Shown: positions 416 to 15,931 of the stretch, one piece after another
Layout: each line of letters starts with the position of its first letter
How positions within the stretch are numbered: position 1 is the stretch's first letter
Origin: Alphaproteobacteria bacterium
GTDB taxonomy: Bacteria > Pseudomonadota > Alphaproteobacteria > UBA6615
Direction of reading: 5' to 3'
Length of the DNA: 32,213 bases
Assembly (NCBI GenBank): GCA_013003285.1
Contig: JABDJY010000398.1
Span: forward strand, 1 to 32,213
Made by a program: the position numbers and the translations under genes
The notes under the pieces: model-generated
The model's input: only the letters and a program-made list of their open reading frames with translations
The model's database searches: none
What the model was told of the DNA's origin: nothing

Positions 416-1374
416 CCGACCTACACACCGACCCTCAGACAGATCGCCACATCGAACGCATGAAAGATCTGCCGTCAGCCCATCTGCTCGGCGCCGGCAC
501 CGCCATGTGCGCCGGGTGCGGCGGCCTGCAGGCGGTCAAACAGGGCTACGACATACTGGGCGAGAAGACGGTCTTCGTGAACGCCGCCGGCTGCATGACA
601 TTGGCCAGCGTCTATCCGTTCACCCCGTTCCGCGGATCATGGTTGTACACCGCCATGGCATCGGCGCCGGCGGGCGCACAGGGCGTCCGCGACGCCCTCG
701 ATATCTTGCGCGACAGCGGCCGGATGACGCCCGAAGACGATATGCAGGTGGTCGTCCTCACCGGCGACGGGTCGGCCGGCGGCATGGGCCTATCGGCCAC
801 CTCGGGGGCCATCGATCGGGGTCTCGATTTCATCTATCTGTGCTACGACAATGAGGGTTACGGCAATACCGGCCATCAGGCGTCATCAGCGACGCCGCAC
901 GGCGCCCATACCGCGACCACGGCGGTGGGTGATGGCCTCCACGGCTACAAAAAAGACATCTTCGCGATCTGGGCGGCCAATAAGCCAACCTATGCCGCCA
1001 CGGTTATCGGCGCCGAACCGCTCGATCTGGCGAAAAAGTTTGAGAAGGCACGCGACCTAAAGGGCCCCCGTTTGATCAACGCGCTGGCGCCATGCCCGCC
1101 CGGTTGGGGGTTCGACCCCGAGCACACGGTGGAGATCGGCCGGCTCGCCGTGCGCACCGGCGTGTGGCCGCTCAAGGAGTATGTCGACGGTAGGGTCATC
1201 CATACGCGTCGACCCCATCCACACCTGCCGGTCGAAGAATTCTTGAAGCTGCAGGACCGCTTCGCCCATTTGTTCGAGCCCAAGCGCAACGACAAGGTAC
1301 TCGCTGAAATACAGGCGAGGGTCGATGCCTATTGGGACCGCGCGGAAGCCGCGGGCGAGTTTGAAACAAAATGA
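412..1374 (+). CDS. porB: 2-oxoacid:ferredoxin oxidoreductase beta subunit (TPP-binding)
   Basis: CAGCG and NAAGC Fe-S cysteines, GDG...[13 protein letters not shown]-binding motif, PCPPGW. Substrate specificity cannot be determined. Confidence 0.9.
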
Positions 1375-3089
1375 CCGGCGCAGCGCTCAGCTATTTCCAT
1401 CGGGGCGGTGACACGGCGTTGCTGGGCGGCACTATTCCCGAACATTTTGCCGATGTGTGCCGCCAGCATGGAGATGCCGAGGCAATTGTTTGCGCATTTC
1501 AAAACCGCCGCCTCACATATGCGCAGTTGGCCGAGGAGATCGATCGGGTCGCCTGTGGTCTCGTCGCGTTGGGATTCGGCAAGGGCGACCGGATCGGCGT
1601 CTGGTCGACCAACAATGTCGAATGGTTGCTCTTGCAAATGGCGACGGCGCGCATCGGCGCTGTGCTGGTTAATATCAATCCGGCCAACCGGCCGCGCGAA
1701 CTCGCCTATGCTCTGGAACGGTCGCAAGTGCAGGGGCTGTTCACGATTCCCGCATTCCGCACCAGCGAATATGTCGAGATGCTGACCGAGCTCGTCCCTG
1801 AACTAAAGAACGCCGATCCGACGGAAGACCTCTCGAGTAAGGCCCTACCCGATCTGCGGCGCGTTGTGGTCTACGATCCGGCGGCGCCGGAGCAGACCGA
1901 CCGGCCCTGGTCGGGCTTTGGTACCTGGCAAGACATGCTGGCGGCGGGCGAGCATGTGGCGGAGGAAGAGCTCGATGCGCGAACCGGTAGTCTCGACCGC
2001 GACGACCCGATAAATATCCAATACACCTCAGGAACGACCGGGTTTCCCAAGGCGGTCGTCCTGACCCACCATAATTTGCTCAACAACGCCTACTTTACGG
2101 CGCAGGCCATGCACTTCACCGCCGCCGACCGGTTGGCCGTGCCGGTGCCGTTCTATCATTGCTTCGGTATGGTCCTTGCGAATTTGGTTTCATTCTCGGT
2201 CGGTGCCTGCGTGGTTATTCCCGCGCCCCATTTCGACCCGCTGGCAACGCTCGAGGCCATCGCCGCTGAACGCTGCACGGCGGTCCACGGTGTACCCACC
2301 ATGTTCATCGCCCAACTCGAACATGCCGAGTTCGAGCGCTTCGATCTAACGAGCCTGCGGACCGGTATCATGGCGGGCGCCCCCTGCCCGGAAGCTCTGA
2401 TGAACCGGGTGATTGCGGATATGCATTGTTCGGAAATCCTGATCGGATATGGCCAGACCGAGGCCTCGCCTTTGACGCATCTGACTACCTCGGAAGATAC
2501 GCTAGAGCGCCGCACCCAGACGGTCGGCCGCAACCTGCAGCATCAGGAAGTCAAAGTGATCGACCCTGAAAGTAGCCAAACCGTTCCGCTCGGCGAGGTC
2601 GGCGAAATATGCTTTCGGGGATATCACGTCATGCGCGGCTATTACGGTGATCCGGAGAAAACTGCCGAGACGGTTGACGAAGCCGGCTGGTTGCATTCCG
2701 GCGATCTGGGCACGATGGACGCCGAAGGCTATGTGCAAATCACCGGCCGGCTGAAGGATATGATCATCCGCGGCGGCGAAAACATCTATCCGGCGGAAAT
2801 CGAAGCCTACCTGTTCACCCATCCGAAGATCGCTCAAGTGTGCGTTTTCGGCGTCCCCGACGAATTCTTCGGCGAAGAGATTATGGCCTGGATCGAGCTC
2901 CATGGCGGCGAACACGCCAGCGAAGATGAGATTCGCGCATTCTGCAAAGACGGGCTCGCCCATTTCAAGACACCGCGTTACATCTGGTTCGTCGACGAAT
3001 TTCCCATGACCGTCACCGGCAAGCTGCAAAAGTTTCGGATGCGGGAAATCGCCGAGGCGCGCATGGGCAAAGACGCGGCCAGCGCATAG
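1371..3089 (+). CDS. AMP-binding acyl-CoA synthetase / fatty-acid-CoA ligase
   Basis: [36 protein letters not shown] and TGKLQK adenylate-forming motifs. ATGA overlap with porB. Confidence 0.92.
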
Positions 3090-8218: not shown

Positions 8219-9703
8219 ATGGCTAGTAACGCTTTCCTCAATCCGGTCATCAGGAACTGCTCGCAATGCTTGGTTCATGTGCCCGATCTGGCGGTTTACG
8301 GATCGAAGCCGCGGCGCGAAATTCTAAAGGATTCCAAGATCGAACGACGTTTGGTGGCGTCGCTGCGGGCGTTCGATCATGCCGTCGGTTATGCGCCGAA
8401 CCAGACCTATATTGGTAATCTCACGCCCGATCAGTTGGCCGCGATCCCGCGGCCCTGGTACGTCGCGGATGAAGGGGTAAATACCAGCCCACCGCATGTT
8501 GGCCCCTTCGGCGAAATCGTTTCGCAGGACTTGTTCTACGCAATCCTCGAGCGCGCCAACGTACTGACCCCGGCGCTGGTGGAGCTGACCGCGGAGAGCC
8601 ATGAGAAACTGAACGCCAAATTGCGCGGCCATCCAGTGCTTGCCGGCCTGGCCGGCGGCGATGTGGGATCGTCGATGTCGATCGAGGCGGAAATTGAGGC
8701 AGAAACGGCTCTACCGCTGCGCACCGGCGGAAAACTGCGCGGCGGCGTGCGCCGGGATAACCGCAGCGAAGGCCGTGAAGACGCCAATCTCGATGCCGCG
8801 ACACTGCTGGAAGGGCTTTGCGTCAAGGCGTCGGGCACAATCGCGCTGCAGTGGCTGCTGCACCGCGAGGGTATAGGCCCGGAAGAGATCGATTATGTGA
8901 TCAGCTGCGGCGAGGAGGCAGCGGGCGATCGCTATCAACGCGGCGCCGGTGGAATAGCCAAAAGCATCGGTGAGATGTGCGGCTGCGTCAACGCCTCTGG
9001 CATGGATGTGAAGAACTTCTGCGCGGGTCCCGCATCAGCGCTGGTCACGGCCGGCGCGTTGGTGAAGGCTGGCTTGTACCGAAACGTGGCGGTGGTCGCG
9101 GGCGGATCGCTGGCCAAACTCGGCATGAAATTCGAAGCCTTCCTCGAACGCGGCATGCCGGTCCTCGACGATTGCCTGGGCGCGACGGCCTTTCTGGTCA
9201 CCGCCGATGACGGCGTGAGCCCGGTACTCCGCCTGGAGCCGGGTGCGGTGGGGTTGGCGCGCATCGGTGCCAGTACGTCCGACCAAGCGGTCTACCGGGA
9301 ACTTATTCTCAAACCTCTCGAGGCGCTGGGCTTGAGAATGTCCGATGTGGATAAATACGCACCCGAACTTCATAATCCTGAGATCATGGAGCATTCCGGC
9401 TCCGGCGACGTCGTTCACAAGAACTACCGGATCATCGCGGCCCTGGCCGTCATGGACGATCAAATAACCAAAGCGGAGATGCCGTCGTTTATCGAGCGTA
9501 TCGGTATGGTCGGCTTTGCGCCGACCCAAGGCCATATCCCCTCGGCGGTGCCCTATATGGGGCATGCGCTCGAAGCGATGCGACGGGGCGAATTGCGACG
9601 CGCAATGTTTCTATGCAAGGCTAGCCTCTTCCTGAACCGCCTGACGGAACTTTATGATGGCGTGTCTTTCATGCTCGAATCGAACTCTAAATTGAAGTCT
9701 TAG
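8219..9703 (+). CDS. grdC: Glycine/sarcosine/betaine reductase component C, beta subunit
   Basis: YGSKP, YAPNQTYIGN, IDYVISCGEEAAGDRYQRGAG, AKLGM, ELHNPEI, NYRIIAAL, GFAPTQGHIPS and KASLFL..T.LYDGVSF match recalled GrdC motifs. Directly upstream of grdA. Confidence 0.9.
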   Translation: MASNAFLNPVIRNCSQCLVHVPDLAVYGSKPRREILKDSKIERRLVASLRAFDHAVGYAPNQTYIGNLTPDQLAAIPRPWYVADEGVNTSPPHVGPFGEIVSQDLFYAILERANVLTPALVELTAESHEKLNAKLRGHPVLAGLAGGDVGSSMSIEAEIEAETALPLRTGGKLRGGVRRDNRSEGREDANLDAATLLEGLCVKASGTIALQWLLHREGIGPEEIDYVISCGEEAAGDRYQRGAGGIAKSIGEMCGCVNASGMDVKNFCAGPASALVTAGALVKAGLYRNVAVVAGGSLAKLGMKFEAFLERGMPVLDDCLGATAFLVTADDGVSPVLRLEPGAVGLARIGASTSDQAVYRELILKPLEALGLRMSDVDKYAPELHNPEIMEHSGSGDVVHKNYRIIAALAVMDDQITKAEMPSFIERIGMVGFAPTQGHIPSAVPYMGHALEAMRRGELRRAMFLCKASLFLNRLTELYDGVSFMLESNSKLKS

Positions 9704-9722
9704 GTCAAAGGGAGTTACCTTC

Positions 9723-10178
9723 ATGCTGGACGCTAAAAAGGTTGCCGTCTTCGGCGAACGCGACGATGTGACGGGCGTAGCCATACGCAAATGCGTCGAA
9801 GCCGCCGGCGGCGAAGTCGTCTACGAAGCGACGTCCTGCTTCGTGTGAACGGCTGCCGGCGCCGCAGGTCTTGCGGAGCAAGAAGAGATAAAGAAGCTAG
9901 CCGACCAGTTCGGAACGGAGCAGCTTGTCGTCGTGTTCGGCCTTAACGAGCCGGCCAATTTGCGCATCATGGCGACCACGTTCAAGGACGGCGATCCCAG
10001 TTACGCCGGCGCGCTCGGCGGCATCGCGTTGGGCCTCGAAAGCTATCACATCTTCGAATTGAAGGACGAGATTCCGGCGGATGCCTGGGCCGAGGAGATG
10101 GCGTTCGAGGAACTGGAAGCCGGCGACGAGCTGATCGACGAAATCTGCCAGACCATGCGCCAGGTACGCGAAGGGTAA
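9723..10178 (+). CDS. grdA: Glycine/sarcosine/betaine reductase selenoprotein A (151 aa; Sec at UGA 9846-9848, codon 42)
   Basis: GGGAG RBS, then MLDAKKVAVFGERDD...SCFV-UGA-TAAGA... in frame with ORF 9933..10178 (GDPSYAGALGGIALGL). CFVU is the GrdA CxxU motif. Confidence 0.95.
9849..9876 (+). promoter_or_regulatory. Bacterial SECIS element of grdA
   Basis: Hairpin CCGCA-GGTCT-TGCGG (9862-9876). GCAGGTCT lies at +16..+23 after the UGA, the same sequence and spacing as the E. coli fdhF SECIS apical loop as I recall it. Confidence 0.85.
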
Positions 10179-10242
10179 GCGCGGCGTCAGCTATCGTCGG
10201 TTCCATTATCGCTCAAGCTTATCGGGTGCTTCCTGGCCTCAG

Positions 10243-10256
10243 TTGAGCGAGATCAA
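10243..10256. promoter_or_regulatory. FNR/FixK-like box upstream of the 10382 operon
   Basis: TTGAG-CGAG-ATCAA (9/10). A weaker copy, TTGAG-CCCG-CGCAA, lies at 10303-10316. Confidence 0.55.
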
Positions 10257-10381
10257 CGCTCCTCAATCGATTACATGCGATTCAATAATTACAGTTCGTT
10301 CCTTGAGCCCGCGCAACCCGGCATCCGACCCACAATGGTCTATGCATTGCGGTGAAATGCGGCTCTCCGAGGAAGCAGACT

Positions 10382-10927
10382 ATGCCAATCTATCTGGAGC
10401 CGCGAGACGTTACTGAAGACCTTGAGGAATTCAGTTCTGTCTTGATTGTGTCGTGCCCGATCTGCCCGCAGATGTCGCTGTCGATGCAGAAGAAGACGCC
10501 GTTCATTGAATTCTTCAAACATGGCTTCAAGACGCCAGCGTTCGAGGATTATATCGCGTCGATTCGCGCGCCGCTCAAGCAACGCGGTGTTCGCACCGAC
10601 GTTTTCACCATGCGTGCGCCGTCGCCGTTGATGTGCATCTGGACCGAGGGGCAGCGTCGCCGGCTGCGGGAACGTGCCAAGGGATTTGAGGCGGTGCTCG
10701 TGTTGGGATGCCATTCCGCCACAGCGACAGCGAAAGAGGCACTCAAGGACACCGATTGCCAAGTCTTTCAGGCCATGCGGATGAGAGGGCTGGCAAACGC
10801 AACGATGAAAGTCGATTTTCCGGCGACGGTCGAACTCGATATGAATCCGACGCCGACGAACCGCGCGGCGCGACGGCACGAGAATCGGGTCGGCACCGCG
10901 GCGGAAAACGAAAAGGAGCCGTCATGA
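10382..10927 (+). CDS. Hypothetical Cys-containing protein, resembles N-terminal domain of MetV (MTHFR small subunit)
   Basis: GAGGA RBS before ATG 10382. Motifs VLIVSCPICP, MCIW and AVLVLGC. The MetV likeness comes from recalled motif spacing only. Confidence 0.6.
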   Translation: MPIYLEPRDVTEDLEEFSSVLIVSCPICPQMSLSMQKKTPFIEFFKHGFKTPAFEDYIASIRAPLKQRGVRTDVFTMRAPSPLMCIWTEGQRRRLRERAKGFEAVLVLGCHSATATAKEALKDTDCQVFQAMRMRGLANATMKVDFPATVELDMNPTPTNRAARRHENRVGTAAENEKEPS

Positions 10928-11391
10928 CGGAAGATAGTTCAATGGATAAAGGCGATCGTCAGGCGATGATGGGATCCATGATGGAGCAGTTTTTCGGTGG
11001 CATGGGGGCGGACGAGAAAAAAGAGATGTGCGCGGCCATGATGGTCAAGATGACCGAAGGCCTCGACATGAAGGAGATGATGCCCAAGATAATGATGGGC
11101 ATGATGTCCGGAGGGGCGGGCGACGGTCTCGGCGCGATGCAGGACAAGATGTCGAAAATGATGCAAGGCGGCGCCGAACAGCACATGTCGCAAATGCCCG
11201 AAATGATGCTGAAGTCGATGATGCCTCACTGCATTGAAATGATGTTGCCAGCGATCGATCCGGATAAGCGTGGCGAGGCTGCGGTCGGAATTCTCGCGGC
11301 AATCGTCGAAAAAGGTACTGCCGGTATGTCGGACGAGCAAAGGCAGTCTTTTCATAAGGCACTCGAAGAGGTCTTGAGCCCTTCGGCATGA
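10924..11391 (+). CDS. Methionine-rich hypothetical protein (155 aa)
   Basis: AAGGAG RBS and ATGA overlap with the upstream gene. About 31 Met by manual count, many as MM pairs, plus MMPHC. Confidence 0.8.
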   Translation: MTEDSSMDKGDRQAMMGSMMEQFFGGMGADEKKEMCAAMMVKMTEGLDMKEMMPKIMMGMMSGGAGDGLGAMQDKMSKMMQGGAEQHMSQMPEMMLKSMMPHCIEMMLPAIDPDKRGEAAVGILAAIVEKGTAGMSDEQRQSFHKALEEVLSPSA

Positions 11392-11428
11392 AGTCGGCGG
11401 GCGAGAGCCATTGCTCACGATGTGATCA

Positions 11429-12739
11429 ATGAAGCAACACCCTGCCTTGTATCGGTGGTCAATGAAGTGGGCTCATCTCGTTCGGTTCGCGTTGGTCGTT
11501 GCGGCCTTTTCTACGATCCTGCTTATCGCAACGAACACGCGCCCGGTCGTGAGTTGGGCGGACGCACAGACTTTTCAAACAGCGGCAGGCGAAAAAGTAA
11601 CTGCGTACCTGTTTTGGGAACGCACCTGCCCCTATTGCCAGAGCGCGAAATCGTTTCTGCAGGAGGCCGCGGTGCAGAACGACTGGTTGGTCCTGGAAAT
11701 GGTCGAAGTGTCCGCACCGGGCAGCGCCAGGCAATTGTTTTTCCGGGTCAGCCAACTGTTCGGTATCGAACGGCTTGGGGTGCCACTCGTTGTCGTGGGG
11801 GCGCGGCCGTTCGTCGGCTACGACGGCGACGTTACCACCGGCGCCGAGATTCTGACCCATGCACAAAATTGCCTCGCACGAAATTGTCCCGACCTCGTTG
11901 CTGCCGTCGCGGCGACAATCGCAGACATCGGTTCCGGCGCAGCCGAAAAATCGACCGAACCGCCGGAGCCGACGCCGACTGCCTCTGTGCCGCAAGAGGT
12001 CGAGTTACCGCTCATCGGCACGGTAGCCATTGGCGCACTTTCGCTGCCGCTGCTGACTGTGGTGCTGGCCGCCGCCGACGGATTCAACCCTTGCGCGATG
12101 TGGGTGCTGGTCTTTCTGATCGGGCTGCTGGTTGGCATGAAGGATCAGGTGCGAATGTGGGCGCTCGGCATTGCCTTCCTGGTCGCTTCGGCAGGCGTGT
12201 ATTTCGCGTTCATGGCTGCCTGGCTCAATCTATTGCTGCTGCTCGGCGCGTTGTTCTGGATCCGCATCGCGATCGGTCTGGTCGCTCTTGCCGGGGGCAT
12301 TTTCTATTTGCGGGAGTTCGCCGTGAACGCCGCCGGACTATGCAAGATCACATCGTCTGGGCAGCGCCGCCGCGTGACAGAGGCGTTCAAAGGCGTTGTA
12401 CGCGAGCGCCGGTTTATCCTGGCGCTCGCTGGCATCGTGGTGCTCGCCGCGGCCGTCAATTTGATCGAATTATTCTGCTCGGCTGGTATTCCGGCGGTCT
12501 ACACACAAGTATTGGCACTCAGCGAATTGCGCCCATGGACCTATTATTCGTACTTGTTGCTGTATATCGGCGTTTTCCTGCTCGACGATATCGCGATCTT
12601 CGTGATCGCTATTTTAACGGCGCAAGCGGTCGGGTTCACCGGAGGCTATTCGCGCTTCGCCCATCTCGTTGGGGGCCTTGTTATGGTAGCCATCGGCGGG
12701 CTACTGCTGTTTCGGCCCGAGTTACTTGCATTCACTTGA
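11429..12739 (+). CDS. Thioredoxin/glutaredoxin-like (CPYC) domain fused to DsbD/CcdA-like transmembrane domain
   Basis: N-terminal hydrophobic segment, CPYC and GVP cis-Pro loop, then about six TM helices with the conserved Cys pair DGFNPCA and ELFCSAG. Confidence 0.8.
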   Translation: MKQHPALYRWSMKWAHLVRFALVVAAFSTILLIATNTRPVVSWADAQTFQTAAGEKVTAYLFWERTCPYCQSAKSFLQEAAVQNDWLVLEMVEVSAPGSARQLFFRVSQLFGIERLGVPLVVVGARPFVGYDGDVTTGAEILTHAQNCLARNCPDLVAAVAATIADIGSGAAEKSTEPPEPTPTASVPQEVELPLIGTVAIGALSLPLLTVVLAAADGFNPCAMWVLVFLIGLLVGMKDQVRMWALGIAFLVASAGVYFAFMAAWLNLLLLLGALFWIRIAIGLVALAGGIFYLREFAVNAAGLCKITSSGQRRRVTEAFKGVVRERRFILALAGIVVLAAAVNLIELFCSAGIPAVYTQVLALSELRPWTYYSYLLLYIGVFLLDDIAIFVIAILTAQAVGFTGGYSRFAHLVGGLVMVAIGGLLLFRPELLAFT

Positions 12740-12800
12740 CCCCAGTGTGCATCTGAGCGTTCCAAAATCACGTATCGTGAGGCTCTACTGGTCTCTCCAA

Positions 12801-13244
12801 TCACCGAACGATTGTGACCGGCACCTTGGCGTTATGGAGAACTTTCTCCGAAACACTGCCGACCAATAAGCCTCTCACTTCGCCAAGCCCGCGGCTTCCC
12901 ATGACGATCAAATCGGCATCGAAGGCCGTCGCGGCGTCGAGAATCACTTGTTCGGGGTCGCCCACAATTGATTCGTGCGACGTTTCTTTGACGCCGGCGT
13001 TGGCGGCTCGAAGTTCCGCCGACGCCAGTATTTTTTCGATAACGGTCCCAACCTCGTCTGGCCCATCGATATGTTCCGAGACAGCGTAATCGTGAAGCTC
13101 ATCAGGAAGCCGCCCGAAGGGATAGTCGGCGGCGTGGATCAGAACGACCTTGGCATCATATTTCGACGCAAGATCGCTGGCGAAATCGACCGCACGGTTC
13201 GCGTTACTGGACCCGTCGATCGGCACGAGGATGGTCTTGAGCAT
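12801..13244 (-). CDS. Universal stress protein (UspA family, single domain)
   Basis: ILVPIDGS and DLIVMGSRGLG...LVGSVSEKVLH..VPVTIVR. AGAGAGG RBS. Confidence 0.95.
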   Translation of the reverse strand: MLKTILVPIDGSSNANRAVDFASDLASKYDAKVVLIHAADYPFGRLPDELHDYAVSEHIDGPDEVGTVIEKILASAELRAANAGVKETSHESIVGDPEQVILDAATAFDADLIVMGSRGLGEVRGLLVGSVSEKVLHNAKVPVTIVR

Positions 13245-13327
13245 GGCGAACCTCTCTTTGGCGGATTTCCGTTGTCGAAACGGCGGTTTATTCGAAGAGA
13301 ATCTAGCACTCGTTGCGCCGGGGTATT

Positions 13328-13341
13328 TTGCGCTTGATCAA
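13328..13341. promoter_or_regulatory. Degenerate FNR/FixK-like box upstream of uspA
   Basis: Minus strand TTGAT-CAAG-CGCAA (8/10), 83 nt before the uspA start, overlapping the grdB stop. Confidence 0.4.
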
Positions 13342-14681
13342 TCTGACGATATTGGCTCGTCGAAGACATGCTGGTCGGAAATATCGGTCCCCAGCGCGGC
13401 GAGCGCCTGTTCGACCAAGCGGCGGCGAATCGCTTTTTCCTCATCCGGCGATTTATCGGGATCGCCCAGGGGATGGGGAATGGCGATGCTTGGAATGATG
13501 CGGTTGGCGCCAACGGTTTTAGAGATCGGCACGATCGAGCAGATATGCGCGGTGGGCAGTCCCACCCGTTCCAGTTCCTTGACGATCGTTGCCCCGCAAC
13601 GCGTGCAGGTGCCTCATGTGGAGGTCAGGATAACCGCCTGGACACCTACATTCACCAACTCGGCCGCGATGTTCTGGCCATAACGCTGTGCCCGCTCCAC
13701 CGATGTCGCATTGCCGACGGTGGCGTAATAGGTTTCGCTGAGTTTTCCGATACGCCCCTCGCGTTCCAGATCGCGCATAACATCGAGCGGCAACACCCGG
13801 TTCGGATCCTCGTTGGCATAGGTGGGGTCGTAGCCGCCGTGGACGGATTGGTGGGTCTCCCCGCTTAACCGGTCCAATCCCTGAAGCGAATAGGCGCCAA
13901 ACTTGCTGGCATTTGCGGATTCGATGCGGTCCGGGTTTCCCCTTGGCACGATCCCGCCCGAGGTCACCAGGGCCAGGGTCGCCTGCGCCATATTCTTCAC
14001 CGCGGGTGCGGGTGGCACGCGGCCGAATACCGGCATGGCATACTCGGTCTCCGGCGTAGCGCCGCTGACTTTACGCAACAGCATATCAATCGCCCGTTGG
14101 GCGCCCGGTGCGTCGGCGAAATAGTTCTGGCGCAGGCCGTGTGAAATGGTGTTGTCTTCGGTGGGCACGATTGCCGCGCCCGCGACGAGCTTAAGCCCAA
14201 CACGCGCCATATTGGTCGCTGCGTCGCGCATCCCCATGACATCCGAACTGGCCCGCACGATTGTCACTGGCCGGCGATAGATCTCGACCGCCGGATTTTC
14301 TTCATGCAATGCGGTTGCGGCGTGAATTCCCAGCCGCGCCTGTACGGCCTGACACACAGCTGCGCAGGCCATACCGTAGCGCCCGGCGTTGAAGGCCGGG
14401 CCGGCCAACAGCAATTTGGGTTTGAAATCAGCCGCAACCGTGCGCTTCGCTTCGATGAGGCCGACAATCTCCGCGACCGCGGCATCCAGGTTCTCGGCCA
14501 TATAGTTATCGCCGGCGACGATAGTGCCGATGATTTCGATGTCCGGTGCCATGCCGGCAATCAGTTGCCCCGGCCCCTTCGGCCCATCGTACCACTGGGG
14601 TGCGACTCCGGCTTGATCCTCGCCGCCCAGGCCGCCGAAGAATTGGTTCACATAGTGAATAGTCTGGATCTTTTCGGGCAC
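13338..14681 (-). CDS. grdB: Glycine/sarcosine reductase selenoprotein B (about 447 aa; Sec at UGA 13614-13616)
   Basis: HYVNQFFGGLGGE, AGPAFNAGRYG, LVTSGGIVP, HGGYD and DPNRVLPLD, then ILTST-UGA-GTCTRCGAT continuing in frame into ORF 13338..13565 (IPHPLGDP). UxxCxxC is the GrdB/GrdF active site. GTG 14681 was chosen by RBS spacing; GTG 14687 is an alternative. Confidence 0.95.
13587..13613 (-). promoter_or_regulatory. Putative SECIS element of grdB
   Basis: Minus strand CGTTGC-GGG-GCAACG hairpin at +13..+27 after the UGA. The loop Gs start at +19, the same register as in grdA. Confidence 0.65.
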
Positions 14682-14683
14682 GG

Positions 14684-15931
14684 TCACGCCTCTCGACAAC
14701 TCAGGTGGCTATAGCCGAGCTGATTGGTCGCCCCGATAATGGCCTGTAGTTCGACTTCCATGCTGCCGTCGTCGCGCAGGCTGTGCGGATAGCCGCCGGC
14801 GAGCCGCGACACGTCGGGTAATGGTCCGATCGTAGTTGCCATGGCCGGCAGCTCGACTCGCTCGTTGGCATTTCCCGTCGACACCAGGGCGTCGGCCTCG
14901 GGCGTAGTGTCGGCAAGGGACTGGGAAGCGCCATCGCTACCAGCGAATTCGTCGGTTATCGCAACCGTCTTGATGCCCGCCTGTTCCAAATCGCGCACGA
15001 TCATCATCAAATCAGCATCGGGATTGCCGAAGCCTTCTTTACTGATGATGACGCCACTCGATTTCATCTGGATAATTTTTTCGACCGCGGCTGCGGCCGA
15101 GAGCTGCTTTTCGGCAAGGCGCGTGGGTTCGTTGGTAATGACAACACCGGTAAAATTCCAGCGCGTCCCGTGGCCGCTCAGCAACTCGGCGATGACGGGA
15201 TTATTCTGATGGTGGAAGGTGGTGTTCTTGTCGCAGGCGCTCACGCAGTTTCCTGATAAGACACCATTGTCGAGCACGATGCGGGGATCGACGCTGATCG
15301 GTAGGCCTTCCTGTGCATTTCGTCCCAGCACGTAGGTGTCGTGCAGCAAGCCTTGGCTGAGAACAATGTAGACATAGCCTATGCGCGGCAGGCTCGGGGC
15401 ACATGGCACTTCGTCCCACAGCACCTCTTCGGTTTGGTCTGGTACGGAATCCAAACAACTTTGGGCGACAAATTTCGCCGCACGGGTTCCGGCTTCCCGT
15501 AACGCTTCTTCATGCGCGTGGGGGTCCAGGGGTTCGTGAACATCGATTTCCAGGACAATCAGGGGCAACCGGGAAAACGGCGTATAGGCCGCGCCGGGCC
15601 CAGACATATCGATGATGCCTTCCTGAAAGCCGACGATGGGGCCACAGGTTGCGATGGCGACATTCTCCAGGACACAGAGCACGCCTGTTCCCGGCTCCGT
15701 GCCGACCGCTTTCGCGCGCGGTTGGACGACGTCCTTGACGCACAAGATACGCGTGGCTTCGCCGGGCAACGCCAACCTGACGCGGATACGCGCCAAACGA
15801 TGGTCTTGTTCCTGCAATGTGCGCGCCAACGCCGCCGCGTCGAGAGACAAGCAGCCCTGATTGATGCCGGTCTGTTCGCCCAGCTTGACCTGGTTAACAA
15901 TATGCTTGTGCAAGGTTAGGGTCATTTCCAT
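14684..15931 (-). CDS. grdE: Glycine/sarcosine reductase component B proprotein (alpha/beta)
   Basis: VKDVVQPRAK, FQEGIIDMSGPGA.YTPFS, QGLLHDTYV, SGNCVSACDKNTT.HHQNNP, EGFGNPDADL, TDEFAG.DGASQSLAD and STGNAN. Adjacent to grdB. Confidence 0.92.
   Translation of the reverse strand: MEMTLTLHKHIVNQVKLGEQTGINQGCLSLDAAALARTLQEQDHRLARIRVRLALPGEATRILCVKDVVQPRAKAVGTEPGTGVLCVLENVAIATCGPIVGFQEGIIDMSGPGAAYTPFSRLPLIVLEIDVHEPLDPHAHEEALREAGTRAAKFVAQSCLDSVPDQTEEVLWDEVPCAPSLPRIGYVYIVLSQGLLHDTYVLGRNAQEGLPISVDPRIVLDNGVLSGNCVSACDKNTTFHHQNNPVIAELLSGHGTRWNFTGVVITNEPTRLAEKQLSAAAAVEKIIQMKSSGVIISKEGFGNPDADLMMIVRDLEQAGIKTVAITDEFAGSDGASQSLADTTPEADALVSTGNANERVELPAMATTIGPLPDVSRLAGGYPHSLRDDGSMEVELQAIIGATNQLGYSHLSCREA

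Follow-up and report, generated by a model that had tools for sequence, protein, structure and literature searches.

The window analysed here, a stretch of 32,213 nucleotides (nt) from an alphaproteobacterial metagenome-assembled genome (MAG), carries grdA, the gene for selenoprotein A, in which an in-frame UGA codon for selenocysteine (Sec) is followed by a hairpin within the coding sequence. Comparison with related genes indicates that this hairpin is probably the working selenocysteine insertion sequence (SECIS) of grdA, in the form of a derived redesign that resembles the hairpins of formate dehydrogenase (FDH) genes, is shared by a whole clade of GrdA, and changed and still steers the residues after the active site. 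The features concerned are as follows.

9723 to 10178, forward strand: grdA, selenoprotein A, 151 codons including U42, with ATG at 9723 and TAA at 10176-10178, translated with TGA as U.
9846 to 9848, forward strand: the UGA Sec codon (U42) of the CxxU motif C39-F-V-U42, from the sequence and its translation with TGA as U.
9859 to 9879, forward strand: the putative SECIS hairpin of grdA, nt 14-34 from the U of UGA, based on folds, pair counts and frozen third positions.
9867 to 9871, forward strand: the apical loop GGUCU, nt 22-26, coded by Gly49 (GGU) and the first two bases of Leu50.

The identity of the gene as grdA follows from its profile score above the cut-off, the CxxU motif with its in-frame UGA and the neighbouring grdB, grdE and grdC genes. 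The protein matches the Pfam family GRDA (PF04723) with 143.4 bits over residues 2-141 (cut-off, 22), reads SCFVUTAAGAAGLAEQ around the Sec residue when TGA is taken as U, and was recovered with 137.5 bits and one TGA inside the match when its own genome was searched with the GRDA profile. With the U of UGA counted as nt 1, the hairpin has an upper stem of 5 bp (C17-A21 with U27-G31, positions 9862-9866 with 9872-9876) that carries the loop bases G22 G23 U24 C25 U26, and beneath a G16/A32 mismatch there are two lower pairs, G14-C34 and C15-G33. The consensus for bacterial SECIS (bSECIS) elements, as given in passages of a 2026 review (PMC13188914), calls for an upper stem of 4-16 bp capped by 3-9 nt of loop, a G in the first two loop positions with G or U as the usual next base, an apical loop set 16-37 nt from the UGA and a minimum free energy (MFE) of -7.5 kcal/mol or lower; the same passages describe many bacterial hairpins as unlike that of E. 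coli and unlike one another. The grdA hairpin has a 5-nt loop on 5 bp of upper stem plus the two lower pairs, a GGUCU loop whose G23 and U24 are found in at least 90% of the 63 clade sequences described below, a spacing of 18 nt (nt 4-21) and an energy of -10.9 kcal/mol over 23 nt.

Since protein entries for GrdA are mostly fragments that start past the UGA, the comparison was made on DNA loci. A protein word search returned mostly fragments of 83-102 aa of this kind, and only P0002 (146 aa) among 120 listed spans the sixth and seventh residues after Sec (+6/+7). In a search of cluster representatives many fragments begin at the Met of Met-Asp, an ascertainment bias, and that search was used only for divergent full-length homologues. 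A scan with one genome per species gave 78 named loci (L015-L092). Eighteen of them (L015-L032) read A/V-G/S-L/F at +6 to +8 on the DNA, in hosts from the Alphaproteobacteria/Rhodospirillales, the Pseudomonadales and other Gammaproteobacteria, the Desulfobulbia and relatives, Ca. Tharpella and the Planctomycetota. The remaining loci (L033-L092) read U-T-(A/S)-A-G-A-(M/L/V)-D in 60 of 60 cases, a hydrophobic residue followed by Asp that we call x-D, which bears out on DNA what an earlier note on this window had stated, that clostridial GrdA has Met-Asp after TAAGA. Their hosts are Clostridia, Bacilli, Tissierellia, other Thermodesulfobacteriota MAGs, Rokubacteria, Entotheonella, Coprothermobacter and Cloacimonadota, together with one betaproteobacterial and one "Proteobacteria" MAG. 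A metagenome scan added 80 loci, with the Sec site found by pattern in 77, of which 47 read A/V-G/S, 1 Ala-Asp-Leu and 29 x-D. Closer to the host the gene is rare, with GRDA in 2 of 36 other genomes of its family and no match above the cut-off in 400 other genomes sampled from the phylum, where two weak matches scored 21.7 and 20.8 bits.

A GrdA tree was built from 151 complete genes (the window, L011 and the whole-gene genome and metagenome loci) on 136 columns, with the 15 columns around Sec omitted. The TGA is kept at the Sec codon in all 151 rows, and one branch (100/99) splits 63 rows from 88 x-D rows. In this clade of 63, 62 rows read A/V-G/S-L/F/H and one reads A-D-L, and the residue label needs a single change for the x-D set. 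A hairpin of the window type is present in 63/63 clade rows versus 0/88 others, so that residue variant and SECIS type are linked. The remainder of the protein also sets the clade apart, on a long branch of 0.64 + 0.21 changes per column. The variant is an inherited feature of a whole GrdA clade and is not private to this genome; the idea in the earlier note that this one gene had been adapted has to give way to clade-wide inheritance that also takes in Desulfobulbia and Planctomycetota.

A drift in base composition, by which high G+C would have pushed Met-Asp (AUG GAY) to Ala-Gly (GCN GGN), has in its favour that the G+C content of the window is 58.7% and that several clade members reach 60-71%. 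We consider it extremely improbable as an explanation: x-D loci at 69-75% G+C (L033, L044, L051 and L065) keep Met/Leu-Asp, and clade loci at 50-54% G+C (L022, L024 and L025) keep Ala/Val-Gly.

One metagenome member of the clade (L134:739-783), on a long branch, reads Ser-Ala-Asp-Leu-Ala-Glu, keeping Asp at +7, and the same stem there closes a widened loop of 7 nt; this Ala-Asp form may be an intermediate or a reversal. Three Bacillaceae loci (L034, L036 and L045) each have two grdA-type Sec sites within 3 kb, and the Alkalihalobacillus genome (G489) also has two selB matches. The grdA on a contig labelled as a Solirubrobacterales MAG (L076) nests among Clostridium sequences and may reflect a binning error or a recent transfer.

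The direction of the residue change was read from 31 divergent GRDA homologues (cluster representatives comprising Cys forms, forms without redox residues and domains of large proteins), most of which have no SECIS to keep. All 31 have Met, Leu, Val or Ile at +6, 26 of 31 have Asp or Glu at +7, and Ala-Gly at +6/+7 occurs in 0 of 31. The hydrophobic-Asp pair is evidently a feature of the family at the protein level and the Ala-Gly state of the clade a derived one, because homologues free of a SECIS keep an aliphatic residue followed by Asp. This agrees with the earlier note, which had the residues after Sec differing exactly where the hairpin loop is encoded. There is no GrdA relative with a solved structure in the PDB. 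In an AlphaFold2 model from a 46-row alignment (mean predicted local distance difference test score [pLDDT], 88.2), residues 39-49 form a loop and residues 50-63 a helix, with a mean pLDDT of 59 for the block 41-50, and Ala48 (+6) and Gly49 (+7) sit directly before the predicted helix. Helices often start with Asp, Ser or Gly, and given this placement the model suggests that the structural cost of the Ala-Gly state would be modest.

Pairing within the clade was followed in a gapless alignment (A3) of the 63 sequences, 59 of them distinct. Across eight named pairs, 86.7% of the cells in the distinct sequences are paired, and the upper-stem pairs are kept in 57-59 of the 59, with compensatory changes.

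Pair 17-31: CG in 59.
Pair 18-30: CG in 51, UA in 5, GU in 2, other in 1.
Pair 19-29: GC in 59.
Pair 20-28: CG in 43, UA in 13, UG in 3, unpaired in 0.
Pair 21-27: AU in 51, CG in 5, GC in 1, other in 2.

The covariation score was 0.261, against a mean of 0.113 for shuffled alignments and a maximum of 0.121 for slid controls. Pair 20-28 joins the second base of codon +6 to the first base of codon +9, and its states correspond to residue combinations: CG is Ala/Ala, UA is Val/Thr and UG is Val/Ala. The U·G intermediate was found three times, and the C·A combination (Ala/Thr), which would break the pair, in 0 of the 59 distinct clade sequences. Pairs 18-30 and 21-27 link third codon positions, and the changes there are synonymous. 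The entropy of third positions is 1.44-1.92 bits for codons +1 to +4, falls to 0.29-0.70 at +5 to +9 and is 1.26-1.71 bits at +10 and +12 to +14; third positions are frozen only across the hairpin, nt 16-30.

These patterns bear on the alternative that the change was an adaptation of the protein, in which A/V-G/S-L would suit the GrdB and GrdC partners of the clade or its substrate and the hairpin would be incidental or secondary. The long branch in the rest of the protein speaks for such an adaptation, as does the GrdE of the clade, which has no NCBIfam equivalog above the cut-off and may point to an enzyme that differs functionally. We nevertheless think it highly unlikely, since it does not account for covariation at the purely synonymous positions 18-30 and 21-27, for frozen third positions confined to nt 16-30, or for U·G being found 3 times and C·A 0 times at pair 20-28. 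In addition, hairpins of the x-D type are absent from the clade, yet the conserved UGA requires a SECIS.

The clade hairpin also differs from that of other grdA genes in where its loop lies. With loop positions taken from MFE folds, the clade loop starts at nt 22 and reads GGUCU, GGGCU, or AGUCU folded as a GUC triloop. The x-D grdA SECIS of Clostridia, Bacilli and others follows the same UGA codon of the same gene, with T-(A/S)-A-G-A after Sec and the hairpin in the codons that come next, but its loop is 4-8 nt further from the UGA: UGGA at nt 26-29 in the Clostridium-type sequences with MDLEI (32/32 rows), AGGU at nt 26-29 in the Bacillaceae type with MDQVV (4/5), GGA at nt 27-29 on 8 bp in the Entotheonella/Rokubacteria type with LDLEG (4/4), and GGG or GGU at nt 30-32 on 8-9 bp in those with MDLEG (11/11) and MDLEV (5/5). 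In x-D genes the 5' stem arm falls on the Met/Leu-Asp codons, and it is these residues that are replaced in the clade. MFE folds gave no x-D type hairpin in any clade row, and no Rfam family covers the grdA hairpin in the 20 loci scanned.

The closest likeness is to FDH hairpins. In E. coli K-12 fdhF (database record NC_000913) codon 140 is TGA and nt 19-26 are the octamer GCAGGUCU, whose register is that of grdA, just as the earlier note had stated. The fdhF SECIS (Rfam RF01988, SECIS_2) has G23 and U24 at the same loop positions and the same 18 nt between UGA and loop, and Ala-Gly-Leu is coded at +6 to +8 in both genes. The exposure of G23 and U24 in the loop has a role in the E. coli SECIS, and a bulged U17 on the 5' side of the upper stem is a hallmark of it. 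Here the two hairpins part: fdhF, fdnG and fdoG all fold with a bulged U at 17/18, while in grdA C17 is paired with G31 in 59/59 distinct sequences and the only unpaired base below is G16, opposite A32. The grdA loop is also one U longer (GGUCU closed by A-U, versus GGUC), its upper stem has 5 bp versus 3 bp above the bulge in fdhF, and the flanks are unrelated. With fdnG and fdoG (RF01989, SECIS_3) the apical 11-mer at nt 19-29 is shared in 10 of 11 positions, A22 standing in place of G22, so that their loop AGUCU is in the same register as GGUCU, and clade grdA genes with Ser (AGU) at +7, such as L123, have the exact fdnG/fdoG 11-mer; the gene family and the flanks differ. SECIS_2 scores fdhF at 87.1 bits and SECIS_3 scores fdnG at 84.3 bits and Desulfobulbia FDH sites at 45-54 bits, below its gathering score of 63; neither covariance model matches the grdA hairpin at E up to 10. 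The description of the element as an fdhF-type SECIS holds in so far as it is of FDH type and in the register of fdhF, fdnG and fdoG, and fails for the bulge and for the SECIS_2 match.

Sec-FDH genes were found in hosts of both grdA kinds, those with A/V-G/S-L (AGL) and those with x-D, and [GA]GUCU stands at nt 22-26 in 8 of 11 distinct host Sec-FDH sites (4/6 in AGL hosts and 4/5 in x-D hosts). The FDH-type loop appears to be a common currency across hosts. A Sec-FDH site of Ca. Desulfatifera, Desulfobulbia (L216), has the exact 11-mer of the window at nt 19-29 and, like grdA, no bulge. The grdA of the same genome (L027) is a Val/Thr stem variant, so the two hairpins are not identical. Direct copying from an FDH gene was considered and has left no sign, because these hairpins of one genome differ; the shared 11 nt are too short to tell. 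A parallel exists in engineered selenoproteins, where, according to passages of PMC10778597, six point mutations had to be accepted in a GST to fit a minimal fdhF SECIS behind its Sec codon, and four residues of MsrB1 were changed for another engineered SECIS. There too the codons that follow UGA are made to spell an FDH-type hairpin, and several residues change; the grdA change is natural, ancient and clade-wide, with later compensatory evolution visible.

Several points weigh against reading the hairpin as a working, redesigned SECIS. The 23-nt hairpin gains only modestly over shuffled sequences (z = -2.17, with 6 of 200 shuffles folding equally well), the 61-nt stretch around it is not exceptional (z = +0.95), and GCAGGUCU occurs twice in the window against 0.75 expected; on account of these three results the single grdA hairpin is not significant alone, and the signal beyond chance comes from comparison. 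An Rfam search of positions 9700-10200 at E up to 10 matched no SECIS model to grdA. The GGUCU loop at nt 22 was recovered by MFE in 33 of 38 AGLAE rows, not in all. The shuffle control for covariation, in which 0 of 500 shuffles reached the observed score, ignores relatedness, and independent compensatory events are few, because the changes are clustered on the tree, where the minimum numbers of pair-state changes are 6 (18-30), 3 (20-28) and 8 (21-27) and Val/Thr needs as few as 3. A contact between +6 and +9 in the protein could also yield their covariation, for that one pair only. The GrdA tree is unrooted, with polarity taken from the outgroup state only, and has few columns (136) for 151 rows, with long branches meeting at the main split.

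Taking this together with the comparisons, we put the probability at roughly 80% that the hairpin at 9859-9879 is a working grdA SECIS and a derived, clade-wide, FDH-like redesign that changed, and still steers, the residues after the active site. During translation, SelB carrying Sec-tRNA(Sec) would bind the hairpin and the UGA at 9846 would be read as Sec42. In the ancestor of the clade, presumably in a single event, the hairpin would have been rebuilt 4-8 nt nearer the UGA in an FDH-like form, in which a G+C-rich stem of 5 bp carries an R-GUCU pentaloop (nt 22-26) 18 nt past the UGA. The hydrophobic-Asp at +6/+7 would then have been replaced by Ala/Val-Gly/Ser because pairing in the stem and a GGU CU reading of the loop are both required, and +6 and +9 would change together from Ala/Ala to Val/Thr because their codons form pair 20-28.

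Whether the decoding factor drove this rebuild can be approached through the SelB of the hosts and through their other hairpins, among them that of grdB in the window.

13338 to 14699, reverse strand: grdB, selenoprotein B, Pfam GRDB 457.6 bits, with a UGA Sec codon at 13614-13616 and the true stop TGA at 13338-13340.
13576 to 13613, reverse strand: grdB SECIS with the loop GGG at nt 22-24, Rfam RF01990 (SECIS_4), 45.9 bits (gathering score, 38).

The genome of the window encodes selB (467.9 bits; cut-off, 242) and one tRNA-SeC. SelB was found in 25 of the 30 host genomes searched, and a quick tree of 27 SelBs included those of the window and of E. coli. An E. coli-like group of nine rows comprises E. 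coli, the window, four alphaproteobacterial hosts, one from the Pseudomonadales, one from the Planctomycetota (on a long branch) and the betaproteobacterial MAG (L066), which has an x-D grdA. The other lineage has 18 rows: 10 from x-D hosts and 8 from AGL hosts, the latter being Desulfobulbia and their kin plus one long-branched gammaproteobacterial MAG. AGL hosts are divided between the two, 7/15 with an E. coli-like SelB and 8/15 with the other, and the suggestion in the earlier note that the gene was fitted to a proteobacterial SelB finds only partial support. The grdA label needs 4 changes on the SelB tree and 1 on the GrdA tree, and for this reason the hairpin type follows the lineage of grdA and not that of SelB. 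In the grdB hairpin the loop at nt 22-24 reads GGN in nearly all 59 loci covering this part of the gene; the design is the same in every clade, the peptide after the Sec residue is nearly invariant, and SECIS_4 matches in 15 of 20 loci. In the genome of the window and in E. coli, 7 of 7 hairpins loop at nt 22-24 (grdA, grdB, two Prx-like genes, fdhF, fdnG and fdoG), a very small sample in which the restriction to near loops in two genomes with E. coli-like SelB is suggestive. Judging from the folds, x-D hosts would read both near (FDH, nt 22-26) and far (grdA, nt 27-32) loops with one SelB.

If compatibility with SelB was the driver, grdA would have entered hosts whose SelB was tuned to an FDH-type loop 18 nt past the UGA and unable to use the distant ancestral loop, with the residue changes as the price. 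The hosts of the named clade members fit this, as 18 of 18 (L015-L032) belong to Gram-negative phyla and none to Bacillota, and the patchy occurrence of GRDA among relatives of the host is in keeping with horizontal acquisition. The SelB of the window does cluster with that of E. coli, as do those of four alphaproteobacterial hosts, all hairpins seen in this genome and in E. coli loop at nt 22-24, and engineers write fdhF hairpins by hand at a cost in residues (in the passages of PMC10778597 cited above). A different route has been published, in parts of PMC1794560 and PMC1242214, for Photobacterium profundum and Treponema denticola, which likewise concerns glycine-reductase selenoprotein genes in a proteobacterium outside the usual Firmicute range. 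By these published descriptions P. profundum acquired the grd genes with the whole Sec-decoding trait, and its hairpins are described as divergent from the standard; in the host of the window, in contrast, SelB groups among those of Proteobacteria and grdA has an FDH-like hairpin. We hold SelB as the driver to be doubtful on the whole, given that the 8 of 15 AGL hosts with a non-E. coli-like SelB have as nearest kin the SelBs of x-D hosts, that an x-D grdA coexists with an E. coli-like SelB in L066, that x-D hosts use both loop positions with one SelB, that the grdB hairpin is unchanged in every clade, and that the base of the clade on the GrdA tree does not fix the host in which the rebuild took place.

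A fuller version of the same idea is a natural SECIS transplant, in which an ancestor rewrote the codons after Sec to the FDH type for FDH-tuned SelBs and gave up the hydrophobic-Asp. A glycine/betaine reductase of Firmicute type would thereby have spread among marine Alpha- and Gammaproteobacteria, Desulfobulbia and Planctomycetota with no SelB transferred alongside, and since then RNA pairing, and not protein contacts, would set which residues occur together (Ala/Ala, or Val/Thr by way of Val/Ala). We offer this only tentatively, as less likely than not.

Neutral turnover would instead have one workable hairpin swapped for another by drift while the needs of SelB stayed unchanged; the likeness to FDH would reflect the narrow set of hairpins that SelB can bind, and the form would have spread by descent and transfer. 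It is consistent with the hairpin type tracking the lineage of grdA (1 change) and not that of SelB (4 changes), with the variation in loop place and sequence in other GrdA clades (nt 26, 27 and 30) and with the spacing of 16-37 nt that the bSECIS model tolerates in the passages of PMC13188914. In the structure model, Gly/Ser at +7 comes just before the predicted helix 50-63, a place at which either is tolerated, and the cost may be small. Giving up a dipeptide that 26 of 31 divergent homologues retain speaks against a step without cost, and the new loop agrees with FDH loops base for base in the same register, which is more than a loose consensus needs; we see neutral turnover as a possible but rather unlikely account. 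As a possible reason for the redesign, fitting a proteobacterial SelB is not favoured over neutral turnover by these data. From the proposal in the earlier note that the gene was adapted to a proteobacterial SelB at the expense of conserved residues, the change of conserved residues is retained, while SelB as its cause is set against two SelB lineages, the FDH loops of x-D hosts and a constant grdB hairpin.

Bacterial SECIS elements lie inside the coding sequence, where the same bases have to serve both RNA and protein. This competition is textbook knowledge, and what is added here is a natural, clade-wide, FDH-like redesign of the grdA hairpin with covariation. The clade offers a natural and datable case of such a conflict, with a state before (hydrophobic-Asp and a distal loop), a state after (Ala/Val-Gly/Ser and an FDH-like loop) and visible intermediates in one Ala-Asp form with a widened loop and in the Val/Ala forms with U·G, and it provides covariation of amino acids that is explained by RNA pairing. 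It also puts natural variants at hand for studying what SelB needs in a hairpin, the limits on loop spacing and the passage of selenoprotein genes between phyla, whether their SelB goes with them or not. On the practical side, most database entries for these grdA genes are truncated at the UGA, and their hairpins went unmatched by Rfam. GrdA is named among the selenoproteins in parts of PMC1794560, PMC1242214 and PMC5029168. In the open full-text literature searched, we came across neither a grdA clade with FDH-like hairpins nor residue covariation in GrdA that a hairpin drives; supplements (for example, those of PMC1794560 and PMC5029168) or BSepDB may already show such hairpins.

The remaining genes of the grd region are the following.

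8219 to 9703, forward strand: grdC (reductase complex component C, beta subunit), NCBIfam NF040746 550.6 bits (cut-off, 450), with Pfam DUF5940 and ACP_syn_III.
12801 to 13244, reverse strand: a usp gene, on the strand opposite to grdA.
14684 to 15931, reverse strand: a grdE-like proprotein gene (component B alpha/beta), Pfam Gly_reductase 472.3 bits.

grdC ends 19 nt 5' of grdA, and grdB and grdE lie 3.2 kb downstream of grdA on the other strand. The grdE-like gene scores 371.8 bits with the NCBIfam model sarcosine_GrdG, below its cut-off of 780, and no NCBIfam equivalog is above cut-off. Among the window open reading frames (ORFs) scanned, no gene of the grdD family and no thioredoxin gene was seen, the cluster at 8219-15931 consisting of grdC, grdA, grdB and grdE, and no genome-wide search was made for either. 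The stretch of about 2.6 kb between grdA and usp/grdB (10200-12800) is without a family match except for a weak glutaredoxin-like start in the ORF at 11429-12739 (E about 1e-3 to 1e-4). In three relatives (L015, L016 and L020) grdA and grdB are convergent and nearly touching, and in L017 the gap is about 1.4 kb; because of these arrangements the stretch looks like a variable insertion.

The source assembly is a 3.94-Mb MAG in 506 contigs, 93% complete. When the whole genome was scanned for UGA codons with a hairpin behind them, 202 candidates came up, most of them noise out of frame in a G+C-rich genome, and besides grdA and grdB only two AhpC/TSA genes were confirmed from them, so that the list of its selenoproteins is incomplete. 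No Sec-FDH was seen among the three Molybdop_Fe4S4 matches in the genome, which have no stop inside the domain and open frames of 709-975 aa. The two AhpC/TSA (Prx-like) genes stand in tandem on contig C332 (L099) at 1-597 and 617-1237, minus strand, with Sec at W-U-x-P-C; both have a GGUC tetraloop hairpin at nt 24-27 after the UGA, with a compensatory stem change between the copies. A second, weak GRDB-family match (37.7 bits) lies on contig C1 at 1485-1850, minus strand, in a 157-aa open frame near the contig end, and may be a fragment of another selenoprotein B-like gene.

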